A stretch of 64,000 bases of DNA from an uncultured bacterium (GTDB lineage: Bacteria; Desulfobacterota; Deferrimicrobia; Deferrimicrobiales; Deferrimicrobiaceae): assembly GCA_963741515.1 (NCBI GenBank), contig CAVUIA010000001.1:323767-387766 (forward strand), in the 5' to 3' direction. The translations under genes were made by a program, and so were the position numbers. Positions 3 to 58,320 of the stretch are shown here, in pieces. Position 1 is the first letter of the stretch. Each line of letters starts with the position of its first letter. The notes under the pieces were generated by a model. That model was not told the DNA's origin, searched no databases, and was given only the letters and a program-made list of their open reading frames with translations.

Positions 3-149
3 GCGTGCGCGGACCTCGTCATCGAGGCCGCGGGGAAGGACCCCTTCCGCGGGACGCACCCCACCGTCGACTGGACCGTCCAGCTCTCCTACGCGGAGGA
101 GGTCGGCCTGGGGACGCGCTCCTATGCCTTAAAGACGCTGGCGGTCTAG
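3..149 (+). CDS. 3' end of an upstream gene of unknown function, ending ...DLVIEAAGKDPFRGTHPTVDWTVQLSYAEEVGLGTRSYALKTLAV* (partial, runs off the window start)
   Basis: Frame 3 gives a protein-like C-terminus with a TAG stop at 147-149. The other frames are Arg/Pro-rich high-GC noise. Confidence 0.3.
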   Translation, partial: ACADLVIEAAGKDPFRGTHPTVDWTVQLSYAEEVGLGTRSYALKTLAV

Positions 150-910
150 CCGCGCTTGAAGGCGATCTCGATCCGCCGCTTCATCGGCGCCCAGGACTTC
201 GTGGTCAGGAAGCTCTCCTCCATGTCGTTGACCATGGACGTGAACTTCTGCATCGGCACTGCGAAGGTAAGCTCGTTGTTCTTCACGAAGGGCCTGGAGG
301 AGATGTCGAATCCCCCGAGCACGGCCCGCTGACGCTCCGATGTGTTCTCGAGGATCGGGTACTTGACGATGGCGCCGCAACCCGCGGAGAACGGGCAGTA
401 GACGCCGTCGAGCTCCGCCTCGGCGAAGTTGGCCAGCGTGAACAGCCCGGCGATGACGTCGGGCGGCGCGAAGAAGACGACCGCGATGGGCTGGTCGGCC
501 CACCCGAGCTGGTCGAACCGCCTGAAGACAAGGTACTGGTCAGGCGCCGAGAACGGCTGCTGCCGGCTTTCGTACTCTTTCACCAGCCCCGGGGTTTTCT
601 TGTACCGTTCGCCCTCGACCTTTCCGGGGATGCCGCAGGAGAGGAAATATTCGAAGTCCGGCATCGGAGCGTCCGAGAAACCGCAGTACTTCTTCCCGCC
701 GTGGCACCCGATCGAGTATTGGTCGAACCGCAGCGCTTGCCCCTTCCGGACCGTGTCCAGGTCCCCGATGAAGCAGCGGCGCTCCTTCGACAAGGGGAGC
801 TTCTCCGTCCCTTCCGCGCTGTCGGAATACCAGAACGCGAGGGGCACCTCGGCCTCGGGGAAATATTTCCTCCAGAGTTCGCAGAAACGGTCCTTGAACT
901 GCATGTCCAT
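146..910 (-). CDS. conserved hypothetical protein (DUF169-like, about 254 aa)
   Basis: Good-composition reading frame from ATG (MDMQFKDRF...) to the TAG at 146. It lies inside the longer track ORF 146..1999, whose upstream part is noise. Family assignment is from memory only. Confidence 0.5.
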   Translation of the reverse strand: MDMQFKDRFCELWRKYFPEAEVPLAFWYSDSAEGTEKLPLSKERRCFIGDLDTVRKGQALRFDQYSIGCHGGKKYCGFSDAPMPDFEYFLSCGIPGKVEGERYKKTPGLVKEYESRQQPFSAPDQYLVFRRFDQLGWADQPIAVVFFAPPDVIAGLFTLANFAEAELDGVYCPFSAGCGAIVKYPILENTSERQRAVLGGFDISSRPFVKNNELTFAVPMQKFTSMVNDMEESFLTTKSWAPMKRRIEIAFKRG

Positions 911-945
911 GGCTACAGGCCTCCCTTTTTTTATAGACGATCCCG

Positions 946-2094
946 TTATAGGCGGTTTCGTTCCTCGCGAAGGATGTCGAACATCCGGTCGACCTCTTCC
1001 GGCGTGTTGTAGAAGTGCGGCGAAAGGCGGATCCCGCCGCCCCGGGGGGAGCACATCGCCTTCCGGTTGAACATCGCCTTCCACAGCGCGGCGTTGTCGA
1101 CGCCGGGCACGCGGATCGTCACGATCCCCGAGCGCTCCTCGGGATGGTCGGGGGACAGGATCTCGAACCCGTTCTCCCGCGCCTTCTCGAGGATCCGTTC
1201 CGTCAACCGGCGGACCCGCTCCCAGATCCGGTCCATCCCGATGGACAGCAGCAGCTCCATGGAAGCGTTGAAGGCGGCCATTCCGACCGTGTTCATGCTT
1301 CCCGGCTCGAACCGCCGGGCGTCGGGCGACAGGCGGAAGTCGTAATTCTCGAAGTCGAAGCGGTTCTTCACGGAGTGCCAGCCCACGATGACCGGCTCCA
1401 CCATCTCCATCACGTCGCGGGAGATGTAGAACCCGCCGATCCCCTCCGGCGACAGGAGCCACTTGTGGCCGTCGGCGGACAGCGCGTCGATCCCGAACGC
1501 CTTCACGTCCATCGGCAGGACCCCGACCGACTGGATCCCGTCCACGCAGAAGAAGATCCCGTGCTTCTGGCAGTATTCCCCGATCCCCGAGAGGTCGTTC
1601 CGGTATCCGTTCACGAACTCGACGGAGGACAGGGCGATCATCCGGGTTTTCCCGTCGCACGCGGCGAACAGGTCTTCCTTGCGGACCCTCCCTTCCCTGG
1701 CGGCGACCATGCGCATCTCCACGTTGCGGGACTGGAGGCGCATCCACGGATAGATGTTGGACGGGTACTCCACGTTCGCGGTGACCAGGTTGTCGCCTTC
1801 CCTCCACGGGAAGCCGGCCGCCACGAACGAAATCCCCTCCGAGGTGTTCTTCACGAAGGCGATCTCCTCGGGGGAGGCCCCGACGATCTGCGCGAACCGC
1901 CCGCGGGTCTCGTGGGCGAGCTCTTCCCATTTCCGGATCTGCCACGCCCCTTCGTCCCGGCTGCGCTGCAGCATCCGGATGCCCGCCTCGGCGGCGCACG
2001 AAGGGATCGGGGAGACGGCGGCGTGGTTGAAGTAAAGGAATTCCGAAGCTACAGGAAATTCGGCGGAACGTATCGGACCGACATCGATCGGCAA
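946..2094 (-). CDS. cysteine desulfurase / class V aminotransferase (IscS/CsdA/SufS-like)
   Basis: Full 382-aa ORF with a PLP-lysine motif (SADGHKWLLSPEGIGGFY) and typical class-V aminotransferase architecture. TTG start preceded by an AGGAGGGG Shine-Dalgarno. Confidence 0.8.
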   Translation of the reverse strand: MPIDVGPIRSAEFPVASEFLYFNHAAVSPIPSCAAEAGIRMLQRSRDEGAWQIRKWEELAHETRGRFAQIVGASPEEIAFVKNTSEGISFVAAGFPWREGDNLVTANVEYPSNIYPWMRLQSRNVEMRMVAAREGRVRKEDLFAACDGKTRMIALSSVEFVNGYRNDLSGIGEYCQKHGIFFCVDGIQSVGVLPMDVKAFGIDALSADGHKWLLSPEGIGGFYISRDVMEMVEPVIVGWHSVKNRFDFENYDFRLSPDARRFEPGSMNTVGMAAFNASMELLLSIGMDRIWERVRRLTERILEKARENGFEILSPDHPEERSGIVTIRVPGVDNAALWKAMFNRKAMCSPRGGGIRLSPHFYNTPEEVDRMFDILREERNRL

Positions 2095-2175
2095 GGAACC
2101 CCTCCTGCGGTCGTTTCCGCGCCGGCGGGGGGGAACCCGGGGGCGCGTCCTGAATAATACGTTATAATATTCGCG

Positions 2176-2988
2176 ATGAATTGGTCAGAGGAAAACACTC
2201 TCCGGTACGATCGGAACCTCCGGCTGGCGGAACTGGGGAAACAGGGTCAGGAGCGGCTGTTCCGGTCCTCGGTCCTGGTCGTCGGCGCCGGAGGGCTCGG
2301 GTCGCCCGCCCTGCTGTACCTCGCCGCGGCCGGCGTGGGCCGGATCGGCGTGATCGACGGCGACCGCCTCGACCTTTCGAACCTGAACCGCCAGGTGATC
2401 CACAAGGCCGCCTCGGTCGGCCGCTGGAAGGCGGAATCGGCCGCGGAAACCCTTCGCGGTTTCCGGCCGGACCTGGCCGTGGACGTCTACCCCGCCATGC
2501 TCACCGCGGAAAACGCCTGCGGCCTCTTCCGCAAATACGACGCCGTGATCGACGCCTCCGACAACTTCCCGACGAAGTTCCTGTGCAACGACGCCGCCGT
2601 GGCGACCCGGCGCCCCCTGGTCCACGCGGGGGTCATGCGGTTCGGCGGCCAGATGCTCACCGTGCTGCCGGGCGAATCCCCCTGCCTGCGCTGCCTGATC
2701 GCGGAGATCCCTCCCCGCGAGGACTCCCCCGGGGCCGCCCAGGTCGGGATCCTCGGTGCAGCGGCCGGCATCGTCGGCGCCTGGCAGGCGCTGGAGGCCG
2801 TCAAGCTCCTCGCGGAGATCGCCCCACGCCCCGGCGGGAAACTGCTGACCCTCGACGCCCTCACGGGCGAGGTATCGCGGTATTCCGTGCCGAGGGACCC
2901 GGCGTGCCCCGCCTGCGGCGAGTCTCCCAGGATCGCCGACCCCCTCTCCCCGGCGGAATACGTCCAGGACCCGGCCCGCCCCGCATGA
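2176..2988 (+). CDS. ThiF/MoeB/HesA-family E1-like adenylyltransferase
   Basis: Rossmann motif VVGAGGLGSPALLYLAAAGVG and paired CxxC motifs (CLRC...CPAC). A TATAAT box sits about 8 nt upstream of the ATG. Its stop overlaps the next start (ATGA). Confidence 0.85.
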   Translation: MNWSEENTLRYDRNLRLAELGKQGQERLFRSSVLVVGAGGLGSPALLYLAAAGVGRIGVIDGDRLDLSNLNRQVIHKAASVGRWKAESAAETLRGFRPDLAVDVYPAMLTAENACGLFRKYDAVIDASDNFPTKFLCNDAAVATRRPLVHAGVMRFGGQMLTVLPGESPCLRCLIAEIPPREDSPGAAQVGILGAAAGIVGAWQALEAVKLLAEIAPRPGGKLLTLDALTGEVSRYSVPRDPACPACGESPRIADPLSPAEYVQDPARPA

Positions 2989-4022
2989 ACCCGCCGACTT
3001 CCGCCGCGCGCCGGAAAGCGGTGATCCTGTTCTCCGGCGGGCTCGACAGCATCCTCGCCGCCCGGGCGCTCCTCGACCAGGGGATCGACCTGCACGCCCT
3101 GCATTTCGACTACCCTTTCATGAACAAGGATATCGCGCTGGACGCGGCGGACGCCGGTCACTGGTCGCGGGCGCTGCTCGCCGCCGACCGGCTGGGCATC
3201 CCCCTCCGGACGGCGCATCTCGGGGAAGAGTACCTCGACATCGTCCGTCACCCGCTGCACGGCCGCGGGAAAGGGATGAACCCGTGCATCGACTGCCGGA
3301 TCTTTTCGCTGCGCGCGGCGAGGGTGTTCATGGAGGAGATCGGCGCCTCCTTCCTCGTCACGGGGGAGGTGGTCGGCCAGAGGCCGATGTCCCAGCGGGA
3401 AGACGCGATACGGGTCATCGACCGGTACAGCGGCTGCGGAGGGATCGTCCTCCGTCCGCTCTCGGCGAAGATCCTCGCCCCCACCGTCCCCGAGCTCGAG
3501 GGATGGGTCGACCGGGAGAAGCTGTTCGCCATCTACGGCCGCTCCCGCCGGGAGCAGATTCGCCTCGCGAAGGACTGGGGGATCGGCGAATACCCGGGCT
3601 CCGGGGGCGGGTGCCTGCTGACCGACCGCACCTTTTCCGTCAAGGTGCGCGACCTGGTCGACAAGCAGCCCGGTTTCGGCATGTTCGACGTCCGCCTCCT
3701 CATGTTCGGGCGCCATTTCCGGGTGGGGCCGGTCAAGGCGGTCGTCGCCAAGAGCGCGGAGGAGAACCGCCGGCTGGAGGCCTTCTGCCGCGGGAAGATC
3801 CCCGTGTACGTCTCCGAAAGCCACCCGGGACCGTCCGTCGCGATCGTCGGGGGGAACCCCGCCGAGCGGATGGACGCGCTCTCCCGCATTCTCACGCGGT
3901 ACAGCAAGGCCGACAGGTCCGGCCCTTACGAAGTGCGCGAGGTGTCCCCCGGGGGGGAACGGATGGTGACGGTGCCGGAGAACCGGGAGTTTTCGGAGGT
4001 AGGCCGTGGACTCCTCTGCTGA
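2985..4022 (+). CDS. PP-loop ATP pyrophosphatase, MnmA/TrmU-like thiouridylase-family protein
   Basis: SGGLDS PP-loop plus NPCIDCR, resembling the MnmA catalytic Cys region. Translationally coupled to the upstream E1-like gene. In-frame part of track ORF 2181..4022. Confidence 0.6.
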   Translation: MNPPTSAARRKAVILFSGGLDSILAARALLDQGIDLHALHFDYPFMNKDIALDAADAGHWSRALLAADRLGIPLRTAHLGEEYLDIVRHPLHGRGKGMNPCIDCRIFSLRAARVFMEEIGASFLVTGEVVGQRPMSQREDAIRVIDRYSGCGGIVLRPLSAKILAPTVPELEGWVDREKLFAIYGRSRREQIRLAKDWGIGEYPGSGGGCLLTDRTFSVKVRDLVDKQPGFGMFDVRLLMFGRHFRVGPVKAVVAKSAEENRRLEAFCRGKIPVYVSESHPGPSVAIVGGNPAERMDALSRILTRYSKADRSGPYEVREVSPGGERMVTVPENREFSEVGRGLLC

Positions 4023-4852
4023 CGGGTACGGAAAGCTCCTCTCCCTCCTTCGGGAAATGGGATCGGCGGTCGTCGCCTTCAGCGGGGGCGTCGACAGCTC
4101 CCTGCTGCTCCACGCCGCGAAGGAAGCGCTGGGGGACCGTGTGCTGGCCGTGACGGCCGTTTCGCCCACCTACCCCGCCGCCGAGCGGGAAGAGGCCTCG
4201 TCCCTCGCGAAGGCGTGGGGCGTCCGCCACCGCCTCGTCGAATCCGACGAGCTGAAGATCCCCGGATTCTCGGAGAACCCGCCGGACCGCTGCTACCACT
4301 GCAAGAAGGAGCTGTTCGGCATCCTCTCCGCCATCGCCCGGGAAGAAGGGTACGCCGCGGTCTGCGACGGGTCGAACGCGGACGACGCCCGCGTTTACCG
4401 TCCCGGCCGCCGCGCGGCGAAGGAGCTGGCCGTGCGGAGCCCCCTGGAGGAGGCCGGACTGACGAAGGAGGAGATCCGCGCTTTAAGCCGCCGGTTCGGG
4501 CTCCCGACGGCGGACCGCGGCTCGTTCGCCTGCCTGGCGTCCCGGTTCCCCTACGGCGCGTCGATCGACCGGGAGAAGCTGGCCCGCGTGGAAGCGTGCG
4601 AGGAGGCGCTGCGGCGTCTGGGCTTCCGGCAGTTCCGGGTCCGCGTCCACGGCGCGGTCGCCCGGATCGAGGTGGACCGCGACGAGATCCCCCGCCTCTT
4701 CGACGCCTCGACGGCCGACGCCGTCCACGACCATTTCCGGAAGAACGGCTTCCTCTACGTCTCCGTGGACCTGAAGGGATACCGCGCGGGGTCGATGGAC
4801 GAGGGGCTGCCGGAGGCCGCCCGCGGCTGGTCGACTGCCCGACGACCTGCTG
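4006..4852 (+). CDS. PP-loop ATPase of the LarE/COG1606 family (ATP-dependent sulfur transferase-like); 3' end uncertain
   Basis: GTG start with a GGAGG Shine-Dalgarno. Motifs SGGVDSS and CYHCK. Homology ends near the GSMDE motif (about 4810), but the frame stays open to 5292, so the stop was probably lost to an indel. Confidence 0.6.
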
Positions 4853-4855
4853 TAA

Positions 4856-5675
4856 GTCCGCAAGGGTCGCTGCCTTCGCACGGGATGCTCTCCGTTCGGG
4901 GACGCTCGCTCACCCTCCATGGCTCACTGCGGCTGCGGGTTTTCCTCGCTCCCGGCCTCCCTGCCTCGCTCGAGAAAACACGCCCCCTGCAGGGGAGCAT
5001 CTCGTGCTCGAGGCGACCCTTGCGGCCAACACCCCCAGCTCAGGCCACCTCCACAAGCCACCTATACAAGCCCACCGTAGACACAGGCCAACCGAGAGGG
5101 ACGTCTCTCTACGGAAAGTACGTACGGAAAAGCTTCCGATATAGGCGTAGGCGGTTTCGGGGGACAGACTTCGATTTATCGATAAAGGGTGGAGGGGAAG
5201 TCTGTCCCACGCTCAGCACGTACGGAAAACCTATCGATGTCCCCGGTGGCGAGGTCGCTCTTGCTCTGTCATCCTGTTGGTTTCCGGTTTAGTCGCACGC
5301 AAGGGTCGCTCCGAGCACGAGACCTCCCTACTTGGGGTCGGAGGCGGATCAAGGCGACAAGATCGCGGAGCGCCATGATGCCGCGTAAGCCGAAAGGGTG
5401 TCCCCTGAACGCAGGGACGAAAGTGTGGAACCGGCGGAGATCCCGCCTTCTTTATAGGCGGAAGCATTCGATGACCAATACGGGATGACGAAGGCCGGGA
5501 AAGCATTGATAAGGCAGGTTCGCTGGTCGAAGCCGGGGAACTGCGGCCCGCAGTGAACGGGGACAGCCCTTTTCGGCGTAAGCGGTATCCGTTGGCTCCG
5601 CGAACCGATCGCCTTGATCCGCCTGCAAGCCGTCCCCGAGGAGAGCATCTCGTGTGAGGGCAGCGGCCCTCGCGG
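4856..5675. other. ORF-free, highly structured region between convergent genes (candidate large ncRNA or decayed element)
   Basis: No protein-like frame on either strand. Several long-range complementary segments and a 12-bp hairpin; details are given in the findings. Confidence 0.35.
5134..5208 (+). repeat. hairpin-containing repeat element, copy A (stem GGACAGACTTC / GAAGTCTGTCC)
   Basis: The 11-12 bp stem, a loop carrying the palindrome TATCGATA, and about 25 nt of flank are homologous to the element at 58533-58603 in the opposite orientation. Confidence 0.5.
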
Positions 5676-7117
5676 TCACATCTTGAGGATGTTGGACTTG
5701 AAGATCATCTTCTCGTGGTCGTCGCCGTCCTCGGGGAACGAGGCGTGGCCGAACCGGACGTCCACGCGGGCGTCCTTCGACTTCTTCCGGATTTCGTCGA
5801 CTTCGACCGCGATGGCCTTCTTGATGCGGGGGATGGCGCTCATCTTGCCGTCCTCCGCCTCGGGCAGGATCATCCCGAACTTCGACGTCGCTGATCCGCG
5901 CCACGACGTCGTATTCCCGCAGCGTGTCCCGGAGCGTCTTCGCCACCCGCTTCATCACCCAGTCGCCGCGGCCGACGCGGGGGAGCGCCTCGTCGGGGAC
6001 CCGGGCCTGCACCTCGCAGATCATGAGCACCAGCCGGCGCTGGAACCGCTCGCGCCCGGCTGATCTCGTGCAGGAGGCGGTCCTGGAAATACTTCAGCGT
6101 GGGAAGGCTGGTCGCCTCGTCGAGGTTCCGCAGCCGGTCGTTCCGCTCGTAGGCGATGGCGTTGGCGACCGCCTTTTCGACGTACCGGACGTACTTCCCG
6201 AAGGTGGTCAGGTCCTCGGTGGTGAAGGAGGACGGGAAGAAGGTCTTGTGGGGGAACTTGTCGAAGATCGTCACGGTCCCCAGGACGCCCTCGTCCCCCC
6301 GCAGGGGGAGGCAGATCAGCGTCCGGGCGACGTCTCCGAATTCACGCCATTCGTTCTCCGAGGAGATGTCGCGCACCAGCAGCGACGGCTCGCCCTTGAG
6401 GATCCGCGTGACCGCCTTCTTGTCGAGGAGGAAGAGTTCCTTCTGCTCCCCTTCCGTCTTCATCCCGTAGGATTCCCGGATCCCGTACTTCCCCGTCTGG
6501 GGATCGAGGAGGCGGATGACGCACGTTTCCGCCTCCATGATCAGGCAGGCGGACGTCGCCACCAGCTTGAGAAGCCGCGAGAGGTCGAGCGTGGAGATGA
6601 TGTTGACCCCCGCCTCGTTGATGGCGGCGATCTTGGTCATCCGCAGGAGGGCGGATTCCTCCCGGAGCGATGCGCCCACCGTGTCGGCCAGCACCTTCGA
6701 GACTTCGGCGATGGCCGCCTGCCGGTCCTCGGGGATTCCCGCCTCGGTCACCGCATAGATGACGAGGACGCCGTGCGGCTCCCCGGAGGACACCAGGGGC
6801 ATCATCAGGACGGCCCCCTGCCTCCGGCTCCCCGCGGGGGGCACCCGCTCCTCGAGGACGACGGGGCGCCTTTCCGAGAGGGCGAGCTCTTCGAGGGTGC
6901 CCTCGGACGCGAAGTGGACCTCGGGGGCGGAGGGGTGCGTCCTGCGGGTGGAAGTCCTTACGAAGAAATCCTCGCTGTCCCGGTCGAAGAGCAGGACGGA
7001 AACGGTCCCGCCGCCGACGAACCCGGACACCTCTTCGCACACCACCTTGAGCCGTTCCTCGATCGGTTTTCCCGACCGCAGGATTTCTGCCGCGTTTTTG
7101 ACGAACGCATCGGGCAA
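5676..7117 (-). CDS. GAF-GAF-GGDEF-family protein with a degenerate GGDEF motif (SDVEF); reading frame broken twice
   Basis: Two GAF-like regions, then a GGDEF fold (...YFQDRLLHEISRARA | RERFQRRLVLMICEV...GDWVMKRVAKTL...ARISDVEF | GMILPEAE...). Single-base frame shifts lie near 6050 and near 5875, both in the same direction. Confidence 0.7.
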
Positions 7118-8160
7118 CTAGGGTCGCTCCTCGTCTATCGTCACGCGTATGCGCACGCGCACAGAGTTGCCCGCGCCGTCCAGGAACAGCGCGGGAAGGA
7201 TGGCGTGCCCCTCCGGCGAGACGAAGGGGGCCTCGAACTTGAGGAACGCGAGCTCCCCGCCGGTCGCCTTGACGGAGACCGTCGGGGCGGCGGCGCCGCG
7301 CCCCCGGGCGGCTCGTGCATCGCCTCGGGGCGCTCCACCTCGATCTCGCCCAGCTCCTCGAATTCCATCCGCGGCGCCGGCGGCGCCGCCGCGCTCCTTC
7401 AGCGACGTCGTCTCCAGCTCCAGCTCGACCTCCGGCCCCGCCGCGGGTTCCTTGATCTCCTCGACGTCGGAGATCTCCTCGAGCGGCTCCGCCTCCTGCT
7501 GCCCGAAGGTCTTCTGGATCTTGTCGTCGGCGAGCTCCATCAGCCCTTCCTGCGACGCCATCTCGCCGGGCATCAGGAGCGTCTTGCGCAGGTGGGTGAA
7601 GACGAGCCGGGAGATGGCCACGAGCGTCTCGGTGACGCCCTTGCCCGTGGGGGCCACGGCCTCGTGCGTCGGGACGTGGAGGATGTTCAGCGTCTCGTCC
7701 AGCTCCTTCGTCGTCATGACGTTCTTCAGGTCGCGCTTGTTGTACTGGATGATGAACGGCAGCTCCTCCAGCTTCTTGCCGTAGCTGGAGAGGTTGTCGA
7801 TCAGGTTCTTCAGGCTCTCCATGTTGCTGTTCGCCATCTCCCGCTGCGAATCGGCGACGAACACGACGCCGTCGACCCCCTGCAGCACCAGCCGGCGGGT
7901 CGCGTTGTAGAAGACCTGCCCCGGCACGGTGTAGAGGTGGAAGCGGACCTTGAACCCCTTGATCTGGCCCAGCTCGATCGGCAGGAAATCGAAGAACAGG
8001 GTCCGGTCGGTCTCGGTGGGAAGCGAGATCAGGCGCCCCTTCTGGTCGGGCGCAGCAGCTTGTGGACCATCTCGATGTTGGTGGTCTTGCCGGACAAGCC
8101 CGGGCCGTAGTATACGATTTTCGCGCTGAGCTCTCGGGTTGCGTAGTTGAACAGTGCCAC
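7118..8160 (-). CDS. mglA: MglA-family Ras-like small GTPase with a C-terminal extension; frameshift near 7960
   Basis: Close match to M. xanthus MglA: KIVYYGPGLSGKTTN...LISLPTETDRTLFFDFLP...TVPGQVFYNATRRLVLQGVDGVVFVADSQ...IQYNKRDL. GTG start after a GGGAGA element. A base appears to be missing in CGCCCG-ACCAG. Whether the last 150 aa are a real domain or a separate gene is unresolved. Confidence 0.65.
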
Positions 8161-8176
8161 GGCTTCTCCCGGACGG

Positions 8177-8555
8177 TTATGATCTCTTCGCCGCCAGCCG
8201 CTTCGCTTCCTGGCGGACGACGATGCTCACGCTGCGGTTGTTCATCAGGACCCTCAGCTCGTTCGCTGGCGAACCCGTTGAGGAACCGGATCGCCGCGGG
8301 CGGCGGGGTCCGCGGATTCTGCACGATCGCCGACACGACCTGCCGGTTCGAGGTCCATTGCCGGTTGTCCGCGATGGCCCTCAGGATCTCCTCGTTCGTC
8401 AGGGAGGAAGACGCGAAGGCGACGACGTCCTCCTCGGACAGCCTCGGACTGCCGATCACCGCCCGGGCGACCATGGTGCTGGCGTCCTTGGACAGGATCT
8501 TCCGGACTTCCCGGTTCCCCTTCGACGCCAGCTCGACCTTTTCCGGCACCGTCAT
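8177..8555 (-). CDS. hypothetical helical-repeat protein immediately upstream of mglA (frame broken near 8270)
   Basis: MTVPEKVELASKGNREVRKILSKD...NEEILRAIADNRQW...AIRFLNGFAS, then a shift to ...NELRVLMNNRSVSIVVRQEAKRLAAKRS*. The TAA stop lies just before the mglA ribosome-binding site. Confidence 0.4.
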
Positions 8556-8650
8556 CGCGGAGATCTTCGCCTCGAGGGAGCGGCGCTCGTCCGCCCCGAT
8601 CGGCCGATCCCCGGTCAGCTCGTCGTTCGGCTGCCGATCGCCCGGAACGG

Positions 8651-10738
8651 TCACTCCTCCTCCTCTTCTCCCATCTCCTTCTTCGCTTCCGCGATCACCT
8701 TCTCGGCGACGACGGCCGGCGCTTCCTCGTAATGGTCGATCTTCATGGTGAACTGCCCGCGCCCCGCCGTCATGGAGTTGAGGTCGGACGAGTAGCGGAG
8801 CACCTCGGCCAGCGGCACCTGGGCCCGGACGACCTGGCTCTTGCCCTATGGCGTCGACGCCCAGCACGCGGCCGCGCCGCCCGCTCATGTCGCCCATGAC
8901 GTCGCCCACGCTCTCATCGGGGACGACCACCTCCAGTTCGGCGATCGGCTCGAGCAGGATGGGCTTGGCGATGGCCGCCGCCTTCTTGAAGGCGAGGGAG
9001 CCGGCGATCTTGAACGCCATTTCGGAGGAGTCGACCGTGTGGAAGGAGCCGTCGAACACGGTCACCCGCACGTCGACCATCGGGTAGCCGGCGATGACGC
9101 CCTTGGACATCCGCTCCACGACGCCCTTCTCGACCGCGGGGATGTACTGCCGGGGGATCGACCCGCCGACGATGCCGTCGACGTATTCGAACCCTTTCCC
9201 GCGGGGCAGCGGCTCGATCCGGATCCAGCAGTCGCCGTACTGCCCGCGGCCGCCGGACTGCTTCTTGTGCTTGCCCTGCACCTCGGCCTTCCCCTTGATG
9301 GTCTCCAGGTAGGCGATCTTCGGGGTGCGCATCTCGACCTCGACGCTGTACTGCCGCTTGAGCTTCTCGACCACGACCTCGAGGTGGGTATCCCCCATCC
9401 CCGCGAGGATGAACTCGTTGGTCTGCGCATCCTTGCGGAAATGGATCGTCGGGTCCTCTTCCATCATCCGGGCGATCGACGCTCCCAGCTTGTCCTCGTC
9501 GTTCCGGGTCTTGGGGCGGACGGCGAAGGAGATGACCGGCTCCGTCTTCGCCGGGAGGGGCGAAAACGATCGGGCTCTTCGGGTCGCAAAGCGTGTCGCC
9601 CGTGGTGGTCTCCTTGAACTTGGCCACCGCGACGATCTCGCCGGCGGAAGCCGAGCCGACAGGTTTCTGCTTCTTCCCCTCCAGCCGGAGGATCTGGCCG
9701 ATCCGCTCCGACGCGTCCTTCGTGGAGTTCAGCGGGGACAGATCGGGGGTGAGGGTGCCGGAGAAGATCTTGAAGATGGAGAGCTTGCCGGCGTACGGGT
9801 CGGCGAGCGTCTTGAACACCTGCGCCGAGAACGGGCGCCTTCTCGGAGATCGCGCGCTTGTCCTCGGCCTTCGTCTTCGGGTTGGTCCCGGTCACGGAGC
9901 CCCGGTACGACGGATCGGGCAGCGCGATGTTGATCAGGTCCATCAGCGGCGCGATCCCGATGAGGCGGGCCGAGCTGCCGCAGACGACCGGCAGGAATTT
10001 CATCCCCTGGACGCCCGCCCGGAAGCCGGAGCGGATCTCGTCCTCGGAGAGCTCGCTCCCCTCGAGGAACTTCTCGATGAGGGCGTCGTCGGCCTCGGCG
10101 CACGACTCGACCAGCTTCTCCCGCGCCTTCGCCGCCGCGCCGGCCATGTCGGCGGGGATGTCCTGGACGGTGAACTCGCCGGCGTCGCCCTTGTAGACCA
10201 GCGCCTTCATCTTGAACAGGTCGATCACGCCGGAGAACGACGCCTCGCTCCCGATCGGAAGCAGCACGGGGACCACGGGGACTTTCAGTATCTCCGCCAT
10301 CTCCGCGACCGCCCGTTCGAAGTCGGCGCGCTCCTTGTCCATCTTGGAGACGTAACCGATCACCGGCACGTCGGCCGCGCGGGCGAGGCTCCACATCTTC
10401 TCCGTCTGGACCTCGACGCCCGAGACGGCGTTCACCACGAGGACCGCCCCGTCGAGGAAGCGCATGACCGCGCGCGTGTCCGCCTCGAAGTTGATGTAGC
10501 CCGGGGTGTCGCCCAGCGTCACCTCGACCTTGTTCCAGCTGTAATGGTGGAAGGACGTGCTGATCGTGATCTTCTTGCGGATTTCCTCCGGGTCGTAGTC
10601 GAAGTTCGAGCTTCCGTCGTCGACCTTCCCCATCCGGTCGACGGCTTTCGCGTTGAAGAGCAACGCCTCCGCGAGCGTCGTCTTCCCTGCGCCCCCGTGG
10701 GCGATTATCCCTACGTTCCTGATCTGCTGGATGTCCAC
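8651..10738 (-). CDS. elongation factor G-family GTPase (EF-G paralog), interrupted by two frame shifts
   Basis: G domain (GIIAHGGAGKTTL, DTPGYINF, VNAVSG), domain II (FKTLADPYAGKLSIFKIFSG), domains III-V (MGDTHLEVVVEKLKRQYSVEV...) and C-terminus (...GRGQFTMKIDHYEEAP...). These lie in three frames. An extra G was found at about 9817. Confidence 0.75.
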
Positions 10739-10774
10739 TTCGAAATGTCCTCCCTTGAGGGCTTAAAGGTTCCT

Positions 10775-10815
10775 CTCGTATATAATACGCAGTCCTTCCA
10801 GAGTCAAATTCTCAT
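10775..10815 (-). promoter_or_regulatory. putative sigma70-type promoter (TTGACT-N17-TATATA) plus AAGGGAGG Shine-Dalgarno for the EF-G-like gene
   Basis: Hexamers and spacing read directly from the minus strand upstream of the GTG start at 10738. Confidence 0.35.
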
Positions 10816-10829
10816 CGATTTCATGGATT

Positions 10830-12352
10830 TCAGACGACTCGGCGGAGATCTCCCGGGAGAGCCCGCCGGTGGCGATCACGAAGGGGTGAGATCCGCAGCT
10901 CCTTGCGGATCCGCCCGATGATCCCGTCGACCAGCGCGACGTACCCGTAGAAGAGGCCCGACTGCATCGCGGCGACCGTGTTTTTCCCGATCACGGTGGC
11001 GGGCTTGACGATCTCGATGCGGGGGAGCTTCGACGCCTGCCGGAAGAGCGCCTCCGCCGAGATGTTCACTCCCGGGGCGATCACGCCGCCCATGTAGTCC
11101 CCCTCCGCCGACACGTAGTCGAACGTCGTGGCCGTCCCGAAATCGACGACGATGGAGGCCTTCCTGTGCTTCGCGTACGCGGCGACGGCGTTGACGATCC
11201 GGTCGGCCCCGACTTCCCTGGGGTTGTCCATCTTGATGGAGATCCCCGTCTTGATCCCCGGCCCCACCACCATGGGCGTCATGCCGAAGTAGCGGTCGCA
11301 GAGATCGACGATGGTCGGGGTGAGCGGCGGGACGACGGAGGCGACGATGATCGCCTTGATGTCGCGCGACGAAAAGTGGCTCGACTCGTACAGGTTCCGG
11401 AGACAGGATCCCGTACTCGTCGCTGGTCTTCTCCCGGTCGGTCCAGACGCGCCAGTGGTGCAGGAGCTTCTCCCCTTCGTACACCCCGATGACGGTGTTC
11501 GAATTTCCCACGTCGATCACGAGAAGCATCCGGTTCCCTTTACCCCCCTGGATCGGTTCGAATTCGACGATCTCGGCGCTGTCCAGCGTTTCGACCGCGC
11601 CCGCCCCGTCCGGCCGGAACAGCAAGGCGCCGTCCGCGCCCACGCCGTTCGCGACGCCCCACGCCTCTTCCCCGGAGCGGCGGACGAGCACGCGCCGCCC
11701 CCGGAGCATGTCCCTGCGCTCCCAGTCCGGGTGGATCGCGGGGAACCCCCCGGCCAGGAATTCCCCGTACCGGCGCGCGAAGGCGTCGAGGAACCGGGCC
11801 AGGATCTCGACCCGCGAAAACGCGCGGCCCGCGCGGATCCTCAGGGACGTCGCCTTCCCGCGGAGTTCGGCGGGGATCTCGTCCTCGGCGAGGTTCACGT
11901 TGATCCCGACGCCGATCACGACGTGCCGGACGCCGTCCGCCCCGGACGCCGTCTCCACCAGGATCCCGGCCGCCTTCCGCTCCCCGAGGTACAGGTCGTT
12001 GGGCCACTTGAGGAAACGCGGGAACGCCCGCGCTTTCCGTCGCGTCCGCCAGGGCGACGCCCGCCGCCAGGGAGAGCCCCGGCGGCATCGCATTCGGTAT
12101 TTCGGGACGCACGAGCAGGGAAACGTACACGTTTCTGCCCGGCGGCGAGACCCATCGCCGGCCGTGGCGGCCGCGGCCCCCGGTTTGATCGTCCGCCACG
12201 ACGACCGTCCCGTGCGGGGCGCCCGCCGAAGCCAGCGCCATCGCCCTGCTGTTCGTGCTGTCCGTCACGCCGAGACAGACCACGTCGGCCCACGGGCCGC
12301 CGGGAGCAAGCCTTTCCCGAAGCTCCTCAGCGGTGATCCGGCCGCAAAACAT
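10830..12352 (-). CDS. biotin-protein ligase BirA fused in frame to type III pantothenate kinase CoaX (two frame shifts)
   Basis: BirA catalytic motifs ([41 protein letters not shown]) continue without a stop into CoaX ([15 protein letters not shown]...[12 protein letters not shown]). Pieces lie in three frames. Confidence 0.7.
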
Positions 12353-12384
12353 CACTACATATAAGCATTTCCATGCAACGGAAA

Positions 12385-12732
12385 TCAATCCATTTCGAAC
12401 CGGATCTCGTCTCCGACCTCGGTCCCGGTCCGCCCGATCGTGCCCTCCGGAAGTTCGAGGACCCCCAGGGCGGACCCGAAGAACCCGGACACGCGGTTCC
12501 TCCGGAATTCCCCGTACAGCCCCACCACCCGCCCGTCGTGCCCGAGAAACAGCGCGTCGAATTGGAACCGCATCCCGAACGAGTGGATGCAGGCGCACGG
12601 CGAGATCCAGAGCCCCTCCCCGCGGGGGAGCCCGTCCTTCCCGATCAGCCCTTTGAGCCGGAGACGGAAGGTGTCCGCCGCGCGGACCGACTCGCCGAGG
12701 ACCGTCCCCCGGGTGGCGTTGGCGACCTTCAC
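12385..12732 (-). CDS. DUF192 (COG1430)-family protein
   Basis: 115-aa frame (VKVANATRG...[31 protein letters not shown]...). GTG start overlaps the mutase stop. Confidence 0.55.
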
Positions 12733-14283
12733 CGGTGGACCCCGAAGACCGACCGCATCGCGCCGGAGATCTCCCCCAGCGTCGCCAGGGCGCGCACGGC
12801 GTCGAGGATCGGGCCCATGACGTTGCGCTTCCCCCGGCACGCGGAGACGAGGACGTCCAGGGAAGACCGGACCGCGGACGCGTCGCGCCGCTTCCGCAGG
12901 GACGCCAGCCGGCGGCGCTGCTCCCTCCCGATCCGCGGGTTCACCTTCAGGAGCCCCTTCGGCGGCTTTTCCTCCACGACGTGCGCGTTCACGCCGACGA
13001 CGATCCTCTCCTTCCGCTCCACTTCCATCTGGTGGCGGTAGGAGGCTTCCCGGATCTCCCCCTGTATGTATCCGGAGTCGATCGCGGCGACGGCGCCGCC
13101 CATGCGGTCGATCCGGCGGATGTACTCGGCCGCCCGCTTCTCCAGGGAGTTCGTCAGCGCCTCGACGCACCAGGAGCCCCCCAGGGGATCGATCGCGCCG
13201 GCCACCCCGCTCTCGTGGGCGAGGATCTGCTGGGTCCTCAAGGCGATCCGGACCGATTCCTCGGAGGGAAGGGACAGCGCCTCGTCCCGCGAATTGGTGT
13301 GGAGCGACTGGGCCCCGCCGAGGACGGCGGCCAGCGCCTGGATCGTCACGCGGACGATGTTGTTGTCCGGCTGCGCGGCCGTCAGCGTGGAGCCGGCGGT
13401 CTGCGCGTGGAAGCGCAGCATCCACGACCGCGGGTCCTTCGCGCGGAACCGGTCGCGCATGATCCTCGCCCAGAGCCGCCGCGCGGCGCGGAACTTCGCG
13501 ACCTCCTCCAGCAGGTCGTTGTGGGCGTTGAAGAAGAACGCGAGCCGCGGCGCGAAGGAGTCGACCGGCATCCCGGCGTCGATCGCGGCCTGGACGTAGG
13601 CGATGCCGTCGGCCAGCGTGAAGGCGATCTCCTGCGCCGCCGTGGAGCCGGCCTCGCGGATGTGGTAGCCGGACACGCTGATGGCGTTCCACCGGGGCAT
13701 GGCGTCCCGGCAGTACGCGAGGACGTCCGTGACGATCCGCATCGAGGGGGCGGGCGGGAAGATGTAGGCGCCCCGGGCGACGTACTCCTTGAGGATGTCG
13801 TTCTGCACGGTGCCGGCAAGCGCCGCCGGCGGCGTCCCCTGCTTCTCCGCGACGGCGACGTACATCGCGAGCAGGACGGCCGCGGTCGCGTTGGCCGTCA
13901 TCGAGGTGGACACCCGGCCGAGGGGGATCCCGTCGAAGAGGAGCTCCATGTCCTCGAGGGAGTCGATCGCCACGCCCGACCTTTCCGACCTCCCCGGCCG
14001 ACATGGGGTCGTCGGAGTCGTACCCCATCTGGGTGGGAAGGTCGAAGGCGACCGACAGGCCGTCCTGGCCCTGGTCGAGCAGCCAGCGGAACCGCCGGTT
14101 CGACTCGCGCGCGTCCCCGAAGCCGGCGTACTGCCGCATCGTCCAGGGGCGGCCCCGGTACATCGTCGGGTGCACGCCGCGCGTGAAGGGGAATTCGCCG
14201 GGGTGCCCGGCGTCCCTCGAGTAATCGAACCCTTCCAGGTCCCGCGGGGTGTAGAGCCCCTCCCGTCGCGTCCGCTTCCCCAA
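12729..14283 (-). CDS. methylmalonyl-CoA mutase-family catalytic (large) subunit; one frame shift near 13790
   Basis: N-terminus [21 protein letters not shown]...[24 protein letters not shown] and the catalytic TIM-barrel body are conserved through ...[26 protein letters not shown]. Confidence 0.8.
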
Positions 14284-14293
14284 CGGAGCGTCC

Positions 14294-15568
14294 CTACCCC
14301 TTCGCGCCGAAAAGGGCGTGGCGCACGAGCTCGGCGATGTGGACGATCCGGACGGATGGGTCGACGCGGGCGGTCATGTCCCGCATCTGGAGGACGCATC
14401 CCGAGCAGGCGGCGGCGATGACCTTCGTCCCCCCCTTCGCGGCGACGGACACCTTGTTCTCCCCGATCTTCGCCGAGGAGGGATAGTCCCGGATGTTGAA
14501 GGTCCCGCCGTAGCCGCAGCACAGGTCCGCCCCCTTCATCTCCTTGAAGGCGTCCCCCACCGCCTTGGCCAGCACGCGCCGCGCCTCGGGCCCCTTCCCC
14601 AGCGTCCCCGTCAGGTGGCAGGAGTCGTGGTAGCCGATCTCCCCGGGCCGTTCGGCCGGCGGGGGATCGGGCAGCCGGTCGACGACCCCCGTGTCGAGGA
14701 TGAAGCTCGCGTAATCCGTGCAGCGGTCCGCCACGAAGGCCGCGTCGTCATGGAGCGGGTGCCCTTCCTTGAACAGGGAAGGGATGTTCCGCTTGAACAT
14801 GAGGAGGCACGACCCGCAGGGGAAGACGATCGTCCCGGGCGCCGCCGCGCGCAGCCGCCGCAGGTTCGCCTCGATGTTCTCGAGGGCCGACTTCCGGTCG
14901 CCGGAAACGAGCGCGGGAAGGCCGCAGCACGCCGCCTCCCGGAACACCGAGACGGGCTTCCCGGAGGCCTTCATCGTCTCGTACGCCGCGCGCCCCACGT
15001 CGGGGTAGAAGTGGTCGAACACGCAGCCGACGAAGAGCATCACGTCGCCTTCGTTCGCCTCGTCCTTCCCGAGCGACTCGATGAACCCCTTCGCCGGGAG
15101 CTCCGGGATCGTCCTGCCGCCGGTGAGGAACTCCGCCGGGAACCGGTAGTGGAGCCCGCTCCCCGTGGGGACTTTCTTCAGGAAGAGGCGCTCCGCTACG
15201 GCGCCCGCCTTCCGCATCGCCCGCATCGTCGCGTCGGACGGCATCACCTTCCCGAACAGGATGCTCTTCCACGCCGGGACGCCGACTTCGTCCGCCAGGT
15301 CGGCCCGCCCCCGCATGACGATCTCCTCGTAGAGGACCTGGTTGGGGCACTCCCGCTCGCACCGCCCGCACAGGAGGCAGTCGGCCAGCGCCTCCTGCAC
15401 CGCCGCCGAATCCTTTGCTTCGCCGGACAGCGCGCTCTCGAGGATGCACACCTTCCCCCGGGCCGCCGCGTTCTCCGTCTTCCGGTACGGGTACAGGGTG
15501 CAGACCGTCCGGCAGGTCCCGCACTTCGCGCACAGGCCCGCCATTTCCCGCAGTTCGTCGTCCTTCAC
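14294..15568 (-). CDS. (Fe-S)-binding oxidoreductase with two 4Fe-4S Cys clusters and CCG domains (GlcF/HdrD-like)
   Basis: Motifs [15 protein letters not shown] and [12 protein letters not shown], plus CCG-type motifs (CCGLPA, CCGYGG). GTG start overlaps the glcD-like stop. An alternative ATG lies at 15544. Confidence 0.75.
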
Positions 15569-16956
15569 CGCGGCTCCGACGCCTCTTCGGGGAAGATCTT
15601 CCCGGGATTGAGGATCCCGTTCGGGTCGAAGCAGTTCTTCAGCCGCTTCATGACGGAGATGCCCATCGGCCCGATCTCCATCTCGAGGAACGGCGACTTG
15701 ATGATCCCGACGCCGTGCTCGCCGGTGATCGTCCCTCCCATTTCCACGGTGGCCCTGAAGACCTCCGCCACCGCCTCCTCCGCCCGCCGGTACTCGTCGG
15801 GATCGTTCCCCGAGAGCATGAAGTTCACGTGGACGTTCCCGTCGCCCGCGTGGCCGAAGTTGACGTTCGTCACGCGCTTGCGGGCAGCGAGGTCGGCGAG
15901 GAAATCGAACATGTCGGACAGGCGGCTGCGCGGGACGACGACGTCCTCGTTCATCTTGACCGCGCCCACCCGCCGCAGCGCCGGGGAGATCGACCGGCGC
16001 AGCGTCCAAAGCTCGTCCCGCCCCTTCGCGTCGGACGCCCGGCGCACTTCCAGGGCCCCGCAGGACCGGCACGCCTCCGCGATCCGGTCCGCCTCCCGCG
16101 CGACGGAGAGCTCCTGCCCGTCGACCTCGATCAGCAGCGCGCTGCGGGTCCCCTCGGGCAGCTCGATGGGGATCGTCGCCTGCACGCAGTCGATGGCGGT
16201 GCGGTCCATCAGCTCCATCGCGGACGGGGTGATCCGCGCCGCGACGATCGCGTTGACGGCCGCCGCGGACTGGCGGTTCCCCTCGAACAGCGCCAGGAGC
16301 GTCGTGACCGATTCCGGCAGCGGCACGAGCTTGAGCGTCGCCCGGGTGATGACCCCGAGGGTCCCCTCGGAGCCCACCAGCATCCGCGTGAGGTCGTACC
16401 CGGCCACCCCCTTCATCGTGACCACGCCCGTGCGGACGAGCTCGCCCGTCCCCAGGACGGCCTCGAGCGCCAGGACGTAGTCGCGCGTGACGCCGTATTT
16501 CACCGCGCACATCCCGCCGGCGCACTCGGCGATGTTCCCTCCGATGGTGCTGAACTTGAGCGACGCCGGGTCCGGCGGGTAGAAGAGCCCGACCTTGCGG
16601 GCCGCCTCCTTCAGGTCTCCCGTGATCACTCCCGGCTCGACGACGGCGTAGAGGTTCTCGCCGTCGATCGCCAGGATCTTGTCCATCTTCTCCATGGAAA
16701 GGACGACGCCCCCCTGGACCGGCAGGGAGCCGCCGGAGAACCCGGTCCCCGCGCCGCGGGGCACGACGGGGAAGCGGAGACGGTTCGCCAGCTGGACGAT
16801 CCGCTGCACCTCCCCCGCGTCCGCGGGAAACGCCACCGCGTCGGGGAGGAACTTCTTCCGTAATGCGTCGAAAGAGTAGCAGGTAAGCGTCTCGAAGTCG
16901 GTCCGGAGGCGGTTCCCCAGGATCTCCCCGAGAGCGGAAGAGGCGGTTTTATCCAT
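15565..16956 (-). CDS. glcD: FAD-linked oxidase (GlcD-like glycolate oxidase subunit)
   Basis: Intact 463-aa ORF with an FAD-binding PCMH domain (PRGAGTGFSGGS) and a C-terminal oxidase domain. Confidence 0.8.
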   Translation of the reverse strand: MDKTASSALGEILGNRLRTDFETLTCYSFDALRKKFLPDAVAFPADAGEVQRIVQLANRLRFPVVPRGAGTGFSGGSLPVQGGVVLSMEKMDKILAIDGENLYAVVEPGVITGDLKEAARKVGLFYPPDPASLKFSTIGGNIAECAGGMCAVKYGVTRDYVLALEAVLGTGELVRTGVVTMKGVAGYDLTRMLVGSEGTLGVITRATLKLVPLPESVTTLLALFEGNRQSAAAVNAIVAARITPSAMELMDRTAIDCVQATIPIELPEGTRSALLIEVDGQELSVAREADRIAEACRSCGALEVRRASDAKGRDELWTLRRSISPALRRVGAVKMNEDVVVPRSRLSDMFDFLADLAARKRVTNVNFGHAGDGNVHVNFMLSGNDPDEYRRAEEAVAEVFRATVEMGGTITGEHGVGIIKSPFLEMEIGPMGISVMKRLKNCFDPNGILNPGKIFPEEASEPR

Positions 16957-17007
16957 AATTTATTTATTTTATCACACTGCGTCCGGGGGCCCCGAAGCCC
17001 CCTCCCG

Positions 17008-50749: not shown

Positions 50750-50836
50750 GTCTACCGTTGCCTCCCGACAGGGATCTTCCCGGTAATCTACCCCGAAACC
50801 GTTGCGTTTTCATCAATATAATGGGATTTATCTATA

Positions 50837-58172: not shown

Positions 58173-58174
58173 AT

Positions 58175-58191
58175 TTGGGAATTTATTCCCA
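58175..58191. promoter_or_regulatory. 16-bp perfect palindrome TGGGAATTTATTCCCA immediately upstream of the start codon of the 57342-58172 gene
   Basis: Exact inverted repeat in the AT-rich divergent region shared with the tRNA-Thr promoter. Confidence 0.3.
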
Positions 58192-58320
58192 TTTTAAATC
58201 AGTGTCAACTATTAATAAACGGGCGATCGATCGCCTGCCCTTTCATTGCGGGGCGATTCCGGCTTGACTTTGTCCGACCGCCCTATCTATATTTATAAAT
58301 TCGCGAGTTACCGTTCGTGC

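Follow-up and report, generated by a model that had tools for sequence, protein, structure and literature searches.

Do a cysteine desulfurase, an E1-like adenylyltransferase and two different PP-loop enzymes that are encoded side by side serve one product or several? The question is raised by a 64,000-nucleotide (nt) stretch of contig CAVUIA010000001.1 (GenBank assembly GCA_963741515.1, positions 323,767 to 387,766 of the forward strand) from an uncultured bacterium of the Deferrimicrobiaceae (Desulfobacterota); we refer to the whole of this stretch as the window. An initial annotation had described a compact sulfur-relay or thiolation cluster near its start and had proposed for it either a carrier-independent route or a single pathway with two substrates. 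We arrive at a different answer, to which we assign a probability of roughly 55%: the locus is a sulfur-supply-plus-consumers unit with separate products rather than one dual-substrate pathway. The two PP-loop enzymes, one a LarE and the other a ThiI-like protein with an NFACT-R domain, probably draw on a common sulfur supply to make two products: a nickel cofactor in the first case, a thiolated base in tRNA in the second. Every component is a member of a described family, and the novelty lies in the combination. The features of the locus, in window coordinates, are as follows.

146–910, minus strand: DUF169 protein, 254 amino acids (Pfam PF02596, E=1.6e-23)
946–2094, minus strand: class-V pyridoxal-phosphate (PLP) aminotransferase or cysteine-desulfurase-like protein, 382 amino acids (PF00266, 186.7 bits)
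2095–2175, no strand: divergent intergenic region of 81 nt between the desulfurase gene and thiF
2176–2988, plus strand: ThiF/MoeB-type E1-like adenylyltransferase, 270 amino acids (PF00899, 241.8 bits)
2985–4022, plus strand: ThiI-like PP-loop plus NFACT-R_2 (DUF814) protein, 345 amino acids
4006–4853, plus strand (literal open reading frame, ORF, to 5292): LarE of the tri-Cys [4Fe-4S] type (TIGR00268, 321.9 bits)
4869–5673, no strand: nested-inverted-repeat insertion of ~805 nt, outside the sulfur cluster

All five genes lie where the initial annotation had placed them, the two gene overlaps it reported are real, and each motif it quoted (SGGLDS, NPCIDCR, SGGVDS, CYHCK and CxxC) is present. 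Read directly in the sequence, the stop codon of thiF and the start codon of the ThiI-like gene share an ATGA at 2985–2988, while larE, which begins with a GTG at 4006 and carries a GGAGG 7–11 nt 5′ of its start, overlaps the ThiI-like gene by 17 nt (4006–4022). The desulfurase gene starts with a TTG codon that has AGGAGG upstream, and it is divergent from thiF in every Deferrimicrobiaceae locus that extends far enough. Within the intergenic region, 7/7 aligned Deferrimicrobiaceae sequences keep a TATAAT (2163–2168 in the window, 7 nt ahead of the ATG of thiF), and the remaining intergenic sequence is variable. A scan of this region with the two-hexamer consensus found no full sigma-70 promoter. 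The invariant TATAAT suggests that thiF, the ThiI-like gene and larE may be expressed as a leaderless transcript.

To place the two PP-loop enzymes, we compared each with profile models, solved structures and its own relatives. The first had been labelled MnmA/TrmU-like, an identity that we rejected: the protein scores 31.7 bits against an MnmA equivalog cutoff of 284 and does not contain the PF20259 and PF20258 barrels. Instead, it has the ThiI+DUF814 architecture, in which an N-terminal ThiI-like PP-loop domain (PF02568, 40.3 bits against a cutoff of 20.5, residues 10–159; also tRNA_Me_trans PF03054, 30.5 bits, residues 11–128) is followed by a C-terminal NFACT-R_2 domain (PF18297, 47.7 bits against a cutoff of 26.9, E=1.8e-12, residues 242–326), with no THUMP, rhodanese or further Pfam domain. 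Nor can it be a divergent or substitute MnmA, because a genuine three-domain MnmA occurs in the same operons elsewhere (L048, L092 and L137 among the loci described below). The family comprises at least 7,905 matches, and in 156/156 sampled members the SGGLDS motif, a tri-Cys site (C101, C104 and C210) and two NFACT-R arginines (R243 and R246) are invariant. In the window protein these include SGGLDS and NPCIDCR; in alignments, its NPCIDC falls opposite NPDILC in E. coli MnmA and opposite NPCVMC in the MnmA from PDB 9hln.

An AlphaFold 2 model of the ThiI-like protein was obtained with a mean predicted local distance difference test score (pLDDT) of 81.8. Only the PP-loop half of this model matches solved structures, namely MnmA, ThiI (24% identity, root-mean-square deviation 3.2 Å), the [4Fe-4S] LarE of M. 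maripaludis and QueC, and neither a PDB sequence search nor Foldseek returned a full-length solved homologue. An accessory N-terminal CxC...C motif occurs in 142/163 ThiI-like proteins (87%) and is missing from the sublineage of the window, which includes L001–L003. The C-terminal ...LLC of the protein was considered as a swinging arm or E1 substrate and rejected, as it is not conserved beyond the family-level clade. The ThiI+DUF814 family has been predicted to be an alternative tRNA 4-thiouridine (s4U8) synthase on the argument that its distribution is nearly exclusive with that of THUMP-containing ThiI, with TusA as its only conserved neighbour and IscS present in a subset (Burroughs and Aravind 2014, PMC4075521). 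We therefore treat the window protein as a predicted tRNA 4-thiouridine synthase.

For the second PP-loop enzyme the label LarE was borne out. LarE has an established reaction, the conversion of pyridinium-3,5-biscarboxylate mononucleotide (P2CMN) to pyridinium-3,5-bisthiocarboxylate mononucleotide (P2TMN) in nickel-pincer nucleotide (NPN) cofactor synthesis. The window protein scores 321.9 bits on TIGR00268, against an equivalog cutoff of 150, and matches L. plantarum LarE (5udq) over its full length (residues 9–271, E=2e-46). It contains SGGVDS, CYHCK, ACLASRFPYG and RVR, with equivalents of Ser180, Arg212 and Arg214, and all 54 LarEs sampled from beside ThiI-like genes share the SGGxDS, CxxC, third Cys, SRFPYG and RVR elements. 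It has a CxxC where the L. plantarum enzyme lacks cysteines, and its third Cys lies beside the position of the sacrificial Cys. This tri-Cys pattern binds a [4Fe-4S] cluster in T. maritima LarE, a cysteine desulfurase (IscS) passes sulfane sulfur directly to the [4Fe-4S] form in vitro, and Ser180, Arg212 and Arg214 have been proposed to bind the substrate phosphate (PMC9283937). By family membership the window protein is thus a canonical tri-Cys [4Fe-4S]-type NPN sulfur insertase, its activity being predicted.

The likely source of sulfur is encoded on the opposite strand. The best PDB match of the desulfurase is the cysteine desulfurase 5b7s (E=1.1e-37), and in the alignment of the two the PLP lysine falls in GHKW opposite GHKG and the catalytic cysteine in AMCSP opposite HHCALP. 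The PLP lysine and a catalytic Cys on the C-terminal loop place it in group II (SufS/CsdA-like). Its best NCBIfam scores, ~152 bits with the SufS-subfamily and EF2568-type desulfurase models, compare with cutoffs of 377–475, and it belongs to none of the named equivalogs (SufS, CsdA, IscS and NifS). We propose that it represents an unnamed class-V subfamily of group-II type and predict that it acts as a sulfur mobiliser. As a separate observation, the homologue in L018 (7926–8279) ends in Gly-Gly (...KTGG); the window protein ends in ...EERNRL, and the other relatives likewise lack this terminus.

ThiF resembles E. coli ThiF (1zfn, E=1.6e-45) and MoeB (1jw9, E=2.2e-44), matches the MoeB, UbaA and ThiF models of NCBIfam below their cutoffs, and has no rhodanese domain. 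The GAGGLGS (GxGxxG) motif, NLNRQ and the two CxxC pairs, CLRC and CPAC, are conserved; the glycine motif and the CxxC pairs recur in 28–29 of 29 ThiF sequences. Judged by these motifs, ThiF is an ordinary E1-like adenylyltransferase of the ThiF/MoeB family. At the position of ThiF Cys184 the window and L001 have Ala; the remaining five Deferrimicrobiaceae ThiFs in the alignment (L004, L008, L013, L016 and L122) have Cys.

An enzyme of this kind calls for a carrier, and we searched for one at several levels. A six-frame search of the 64 kb window, like that of ±10 kb in 22 related loci, found no plausible small GG-terminated ORF resembling ThiS or MoaD, in line with the initial annotation, which had seen none; the GG-terminated ORFs that were met in these regions are fragments of larger genes or look non-coding. 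Similarly, tblastn with E. coli ThiS and TusA (approximate queries) and with the ThiS, TusA and JAMM proteins of other loci gave no match in Deferrimicrobiaceae loci. The simplest assumption is that ThiF acts on an unlinked ThiS/MoaD-type protein.

To determine whether the arrangement in the window extends beyond it, we assembled two sets of loci around the ThiI-like gene (cited here by L numbers). A degenerate-pattern scan with one genome per GTDB species yielded 80 loci, and a scan of metagenome contigs starting from distant family members yielded 80 more (160 in total). Genes in these loci were located by tblastn with defined queries; greedy ORF calling gave many shadow ORFs in high-GC loci, and the window itself has a G+C content of ~65–70%. 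Its closest relatives are metagenome-assembled genomes named Candidatus Deferrimicrobiaceae or 'Deltaproteobacteria bacterium'. In all Deferrimicrobiaceae loci with a long enough contig, including the metagenomic L122 and L125, the order of a divergent desulfurase gene followed by thiF, the ThiI-like gene and larE is kept, with 54–81% identity among the ThiI-like proteins. This conservation is weak evidence taken alone, because unrelated flanking genes (GGDEF, MglA-like, EF-G, CoaX and BirA) are likewise syntenic within the family.

Stronger evidence comes from outside the family. LarE directly adjoins the ThiI-like gene in 40/111 evaluable loci (25/68 from genomes and 15/43 from metagenomes), and 10/52 genome loci show this adjacency when the Deferrimicrobiaceae are set aside. 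The two genes are then always on the same strand, with LarE downstream in some clades and upstream in others, and a neighbour-joining tree built from the ThiI-like proteins puts these arrangements on separate branches. Genomes with the pair include GCA_030153585.1, CP070783.1 and OY970341.1. In clade L039–L067 LarE is downstream and the pair lies among AI-2E transporter, M50 peptidase and tetratricopeptide-repeat proteins; where LarE is upstream, the order is MnmA-LarE-ThiI-like, and the genes are separated by ~0–12 nt or overlap slightly in nearly all cases (206 nt in L101). Those neighbouring LarEs that were tested score 310–334 bits on TIGR00268.

The other two components recur as well. In ~15 loci outside the family, ThiF genes of two subtypes (270 and ~340 amino acids) lie no more than ~10 kb from the ThiI-like gene, being directly upstream of it in L044, L046 and L102, and cysteine desulfurases, mostly of NifS/IscS type, occur near it in ~16 such loci. 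NifS-MnmA pairs share clusters with ThiI-like genes in L044, L046 and L048. ThiF and desulfurase genes are found near ThiI-like genes at ~11–12% of non-family loci, against a rough chance expectation of 1–2%. None of the three associations, with LarE, ThiF or a desulfurase, is seen in ~25 Geobacteraceae loci. TusA is absent as a neighbour of the ThiI-like gene in the window cluster, and TusA-like genes occur in a few other loci (L025, L052, L080, L088, L106, L147 and L157). The window arrangement is thus beyond chance, with a conserved core and parts that recur in unrelated lineages, and the view of the initial annotation that this is an operonic, co-conserved sulfur-transfer cluster holds.

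In L048 (OY970341.1) the gene order is LarE-NifS-MnmA-ThiF-HydE-ThiI-like, and within 4330–17265 of this locus the ThiI-like gene is flanked by the HydE and HydG genes of an [FeFe]-hydrogenase maturation cluster, which continues with an aspartase-like gene, HydF and a hydrogenase-like gene. A link to [FeFe]-hydrogenase maturation was rejected, this being a single case among the 160 loci.

The neighbourhoods in which LarE is upstream have a characteristic content. A Pfam census of the 121 ORFs flanking MnmA-LarE-ThiI-like found MnmA 11 times, HcyBio (PF01837) and NIL-ferredoxin 9 times each, CysK-type PALP 7 times, Rrf2 6 times and Thi4 5 times, and in L137 and L113 NCBIfam models identify TilS, an Rrf2/CymR-like regulator, MnmA, LarE and a sulfide-dependent thiazole synthase. 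At L137 2644–9249, L113 3676–11297 and similar metagenome loci, same-strand sulfur-incorporation islands are seen, in which TilS, the Rrf2/CymR-like regulator, CysK, HcyBio with NIL-ferredoxin, MnmA, LarE and the ThiI-like gene are followed by a sulfide-dependent Thi4. The products of these enzymes are homocysteine, cysteine, thiamine thiazole and 2-thiouridine (s2U) in tRNA, and the incorporation of sulfur is their only common step.

It is these islands that give the supply-plus-consumers interpretation its logic, because they join LarE and the ThiI-like gene with enzymes whose products are clearly different. The same islands, and profiles that place the PP-loop enzymes in two families, speak against the single dual-substrate pathway that the initial annotation had offered. 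The annotation had counted against itself either an assignment of these enzymes to unrelated families or a lack of co-conservation; we find the genes strongly co-conserved and the enzymes assigned to different pathways. The best reading of the clustering is that it reflects common mobilised sulfur, Fe-S dependence and probable co-regulation rather than one product.

From the observed family memberships, conserved catalytic residues and gene linkage, we can sketch how such a unit might work; the activities, cluster binding, sulfur routes and tRNA target in this sketch are all inferred. The desulfurase, with its conserved PLP lysine and catalytic Cys, would convert cysteine to alanine and hold the sulfur as an enzyme persulfide. 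LarE would bind a [4Fe-4S] cluster through CxxC...C, adenylate both carboxylates of P2CMN and, by chemistry known in homologues, replace oxygen with a non-core sulfide received from the desulfurase, giving the precursor of the nickel-pincer cofactor. The ThiI-like protein would bind a second cluster at its tri-Cys site, which corresponds to the 'C-type' site of MnmA; following the literature prediction, it would adenylate U8 of a tRNA held by the NFACT-R domain and thiolate it to s4U. At both enzymes the free iron of the tri-Cys [4Fe-4S] cluster would accept the sulfur of the desulfurase. ThiF might act on a ThiS/MoaD/TtuB-type carrier from another part of the genome, adenylating its C-terminal glycine, and the carrier thiocarboxylate could then give sulfur to the ThiI-like enzyme, in the way that TtuB-COSH supplies TtuA, or feed thiamine or molybdopterin synthesis.

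Several observations weigh against this interpretation. No larA, larB or larC was found among ~25 profile-scanned window ORFs, and the 20 of these that lie beyond the five genes gave housekeeping functions only, with no ThiS, TusA, LarA, LarB or LarC; the search consisted of such Pfam scans and the neighbour censuses, and 11.5–15.5, 32–36.8, 38.9–40.4 and 56.6–64 kb of the window were incompletely scanned, as frameshifts blur the frames there. Likewise, neither larB nor larC is among the frequent neighbours of the LarE/ThiI-like pair (~54 LarEs), as opposed to about half for LarE generally: a 2026 survey of the QueC/LarE superfamily gives LarC at 54%, LarB at 47% and a class-V aminotransferase at 25% (21% in one operon), and its neighbour table, which is confined to families at ≥20%, includes neither ThiF nor ThiI/NFACT-R (PMC13329287, Suppl. 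Table 2). With no LarA, LarB or LarC in the scanned window ORFs or frequently beside the pair, the NPN role of this LarE is a prediction from its sequence. The pair in clade L039–L067 stands alone among unrelated genes, which looks more like a specific partnership than a sulfur island. Furthermore, ThiF has no carrier in the regions searched, the window sublineage has lost both the ThiF Cys184-equivalent and the accessory CxC...C of the ThiI-like protein, and the searchable literature holds no later experimental work on the s4U role of ThiI+NFACT-R.

How sulfur reaches the ThiI-like enzyme is the point at which the strongest of the alternatives departs from the supply-plus-consumers interpretation. 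In a carrier-dependent route of TtuA/TtuB type, ThiF would activate an unlinked ThiS/TtuB-like protein, the desulfurase would thiocarboxylate it, and the thiocarboxylate would be the obligatory donor at the [4Fe-4S] cluster of the ThiI-like enzyme, perhaps of LarE also. Throughout the Deferrimicrobiaceae the ATGA couples thiF to the ThiI-like gene, both ThiF subtypes are found directly upstream of ThiI-like genes in the three loci noted above, ThiS-like, JAMM and TusA genes are met in the vicinity of ThiI-like genes (L025, L046, L074, L086 and L088), and UbaA, the archaeal SAMP-activating E1, is among the models on which ThiF scores best. Set against this are the missing GG-terminated carrier, the many ThiI-like neighbourhoods (most of them) without a ThiF, the substituted Cys184-equivalent of the window ThiF, and the ability of [4Fe-4S] LarE to take sulfur straight from a desulfurase. 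We consider an obligatory carrier route unlikely. A TtuB/TtuA-like thiocarboxylate donor as such is nevertheless a serious possibility, because ThiF is coupled to the ThiI-like gene here and recurs upstream of it elsewhere. By the same token, the carrier-independent route put forward initially is plausible for LarE, given direct transfer from the desulfurase (PMC9283937), and insufficient for the locus as a whole, because the translational coupling of an E1-like ThiF to the ThiI-like gene would remain unexplained.

A second alternative keeps the idea of a single product. LarE and the ThiI-like/NFACT-R protein could act as a heteromer or in sequence on one substrate, for instance an RNA base that receives two modifications or a thiolated nucleotide cofactor, with ThiF adding an adenylation or carrier-borne sulfur. 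Their pairing is the most persistent association that we found (both orders, several branches, and often gaps of 0–12 nt or overlaps), it is isolated from other sulfur genes in clade L039–L067, LarB and LarC are missing near ~54 such LarEs as compared with ~50% generally, and RNA binding by NFACT-R is a prediction. Both proteins, however, retain complete and independent PP-loop and tri-Cys sites, LarE keeps its P2CMN phosphate-binding residues and scores far over the equivalog cutoff, and ~60–65% of ThiI-like genes have no adjacent LarE. In addition, the characterised LarEs of L. plantarum and T. maritima need no such partner, and elsewhere the pair accompanies enzymes of clearly different pathways. 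We judge an integrated pathway to be quite improbable. Similarly doubtful is a broader proposition, in which LarE and the ThiI-like protein constitute a dedicated thiolation module of two enzymes, with ThiF and a private desulfurase as optional suppliers. It would make something beyond NPN and s4U8 made separately, be it a new thiolated nucleotide cofactor or an RNA modification, or one of the two enzymes would hand activated sulfur to its partner; the many 'LarE' annotations in anaerobes without larB and larC would then be wrong.

Finally, mere synteny, that is, four housekeeping genes adjacent by chance in one family without functional coupling, fits the shared flanking genes of the Deferrimicrobiaceae and is very improbable in view of the start/stop overlaps that join three genes, the recurrence of LarE/ThiI-like adjacency in both orders in lineages without common flanking genes, and the enrichment of ThiF and desulfurase genes over chance near non-family ThiI-like genes.

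The DUF169 gene, 35 nt downstream of the desulfurase gene, lies where it had been annotated in the window and has no claim to general membership of the cluster. It adjoins the desulfurase only in the closest relatives, L001–L003; in the relative GCA_021815305.1 its homologue and the cluster are on different contigs, and homologues in other phyla (55–60% identity) have unrelated neighbours. We therefore rejected it as a cluster member and regard it as a recent, lineage-specific passenger outside the conserved core. The protein has no PDB sequence match and no structural or functional annotation from profiles, and a literature search was uninformative. Its gain beside the desulfurase is one of three changes combined in the sublineage formed by the window and L001–L003, the others being the losses in ThiF (2725–2745) and in the ThiI-like protein (3115–3170).

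The 3′ end of larE differs from that in L001, where the window has an 11-nt gap (4815–4856) that shifts the frame of the last ~14 codons. The conserved ...PPDDLL-stop (taa at 4851–4853) is out of frame, and the ORF, which had been annotated to end at 4852, runs to 5292 into the repeat insertion; the conserved core of the protein, ending in ...GSMDEGL, is intact. This frameshift may be an assembly error, because neighbouring housekeeping genes in the next ~9 kb (5679–14163) carry ~nine frameshifts relative to L001 proteins: three in EF-G, two each in the GGDEF protein and CoaX, and one each in the MglA-like GTPase and methylmalonyl-CoA mutase. These frameshifts point to an indel-rich assembly or to pseudogenisation, and the cluster genes at 146–4830 are free of them.

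The ~805-nt insertion is missing from L001–L003, in which 10 nt separate larE from the GGDEF gene. It contains inverted repeats with 36-nt arms that are 86% complementary, 25-nt arms (92%) and 64-nt arms (75%), and fragments of it recur at window 58533–58580, L001 2687–2795 and L004 3813–3927. An Rfam search gave no match, and the element looks like a mobile repeat of the miniature inverted-repeat transposable element (MITE) or repetitive extragenic palindromic (REP) kind. Two further observations concern distant parts of the window. At 50822–54871 on the plus strand, a single stop-to-stop frame of 1350 codons encodes Radical_SAM_N2, Radical_SAM and DUF2344 domains together with a complete RNase E/G domain; this is a gene fusion or else a pair of genes merged through a lost stop codon. 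Over 58000–62000, just downstream of the only tRNA gene (tRNA-Thr CGT, 58321–58395) and with one of the repeat fragments nearby, the GC fraction drops from ~0.66 to 0.55–0.56; this region may be an integrated element.

The locus bears on two enzyme families at once. ThiI+NFACT-R, predicted in 2014 as a ThiI replacement and widespread in anaerobes, is found here in a compact operon with its likely sulfur donor. As to the physiological sulfur donor of [4Fe-4S] LarE, knowledge comes solely from one heterologous experiment in vitro, and the dedicated, divergently encoded desulfurase is a natural candidate partner. The recurring larE/ThiI-like pairing appears not to have been described before, nor does the coupling of ThiF to ThiI+NFACT-R; neither adjacency appears in the papers that analyse either family. 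Their repetition suggests either that anaerobes gather non-redox sulfur insertions in co-regulated islands or that the enzymes cooperate more closely than has been thought. Should larB and larC prove absent from the genomes that carry the pair, LarE here would do something else, possibly together with the ThiI-like protein, and many 'LarE' annotations would need revision.

Comparison with known systems places the locus among several sulfur relays without reducing it to any of them. With the NPN LarE system it shares the full-length fold, PP-loop, CxxC...C ligands and Ser/Arg/Arg residues, and the desulfurase next door fits both IscS-to-LarE transfer and the 25% of LarE neighbourhoods with an Aminotran_5 gene; in contrast, larA, larB and larC were not found nearby, and larE overlaps a ThiI-like gene and follows ThiF. 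The ThiI+DUF814 system (PMC4075521) has the same architecture, CxxC and additional Cys, two arginines and a desulfurase in the neighbourhood. It differs in that the window has no TusA, its neighbours ThiF and LarE are not mentioned there, its desulfurase is SufS/CsdA-like rather than IscS-like, and the accessory CxC...C is missing.

The combination of a desulfurase, an E1-like enzyme and a PP-loop enzyme of [4Fe-4S] type recalls the Thermus TtuA/TtuB/TtuC(/TtuD) system with IscS/SufS, which makes 5-methyl-2-thiouridine at tRNA position 54 (s2T54), and the archaeal NcsA/SAMP2/UbaA system. Of the TtuA/B/C set, however, only the E1 and the desulfurase are represented: a gene for a ubiquitin-like carrier was found neither in the window nor within ±10 kb in 22 related loci, and the PP-loop enzyme, which lacks zinc-finger motifs at its N or C terminus, is of a type other than TtuA/Ncs6. 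A real TtuA-TtuB pair was seen separately in L046. In the E. coli ThiF-ThiS-ThiI-IscS relay, the rhodanese domain of ThiI serves ThiS. The window similarly brings together ThiF, a ThiI-related protein and a cysteine desulfurase; unlike the E. coli relay, its ThiI-like protein has no rhodanese domain, no thiS, thiG or thiH lies nearby, and the Cys184-equivalent is Ala. In the YrvO-MnmA and NifZ-ThiI operons of Bacillus subtilis, a dedicated desulfurase is likewise encoded beside the PP-loop enzyme that it presumably serves; in the window the desulfurase instead faces two PP-loop consumers, both of the Fe-S (tri-Cys) type, together with an E1-like enzyme.

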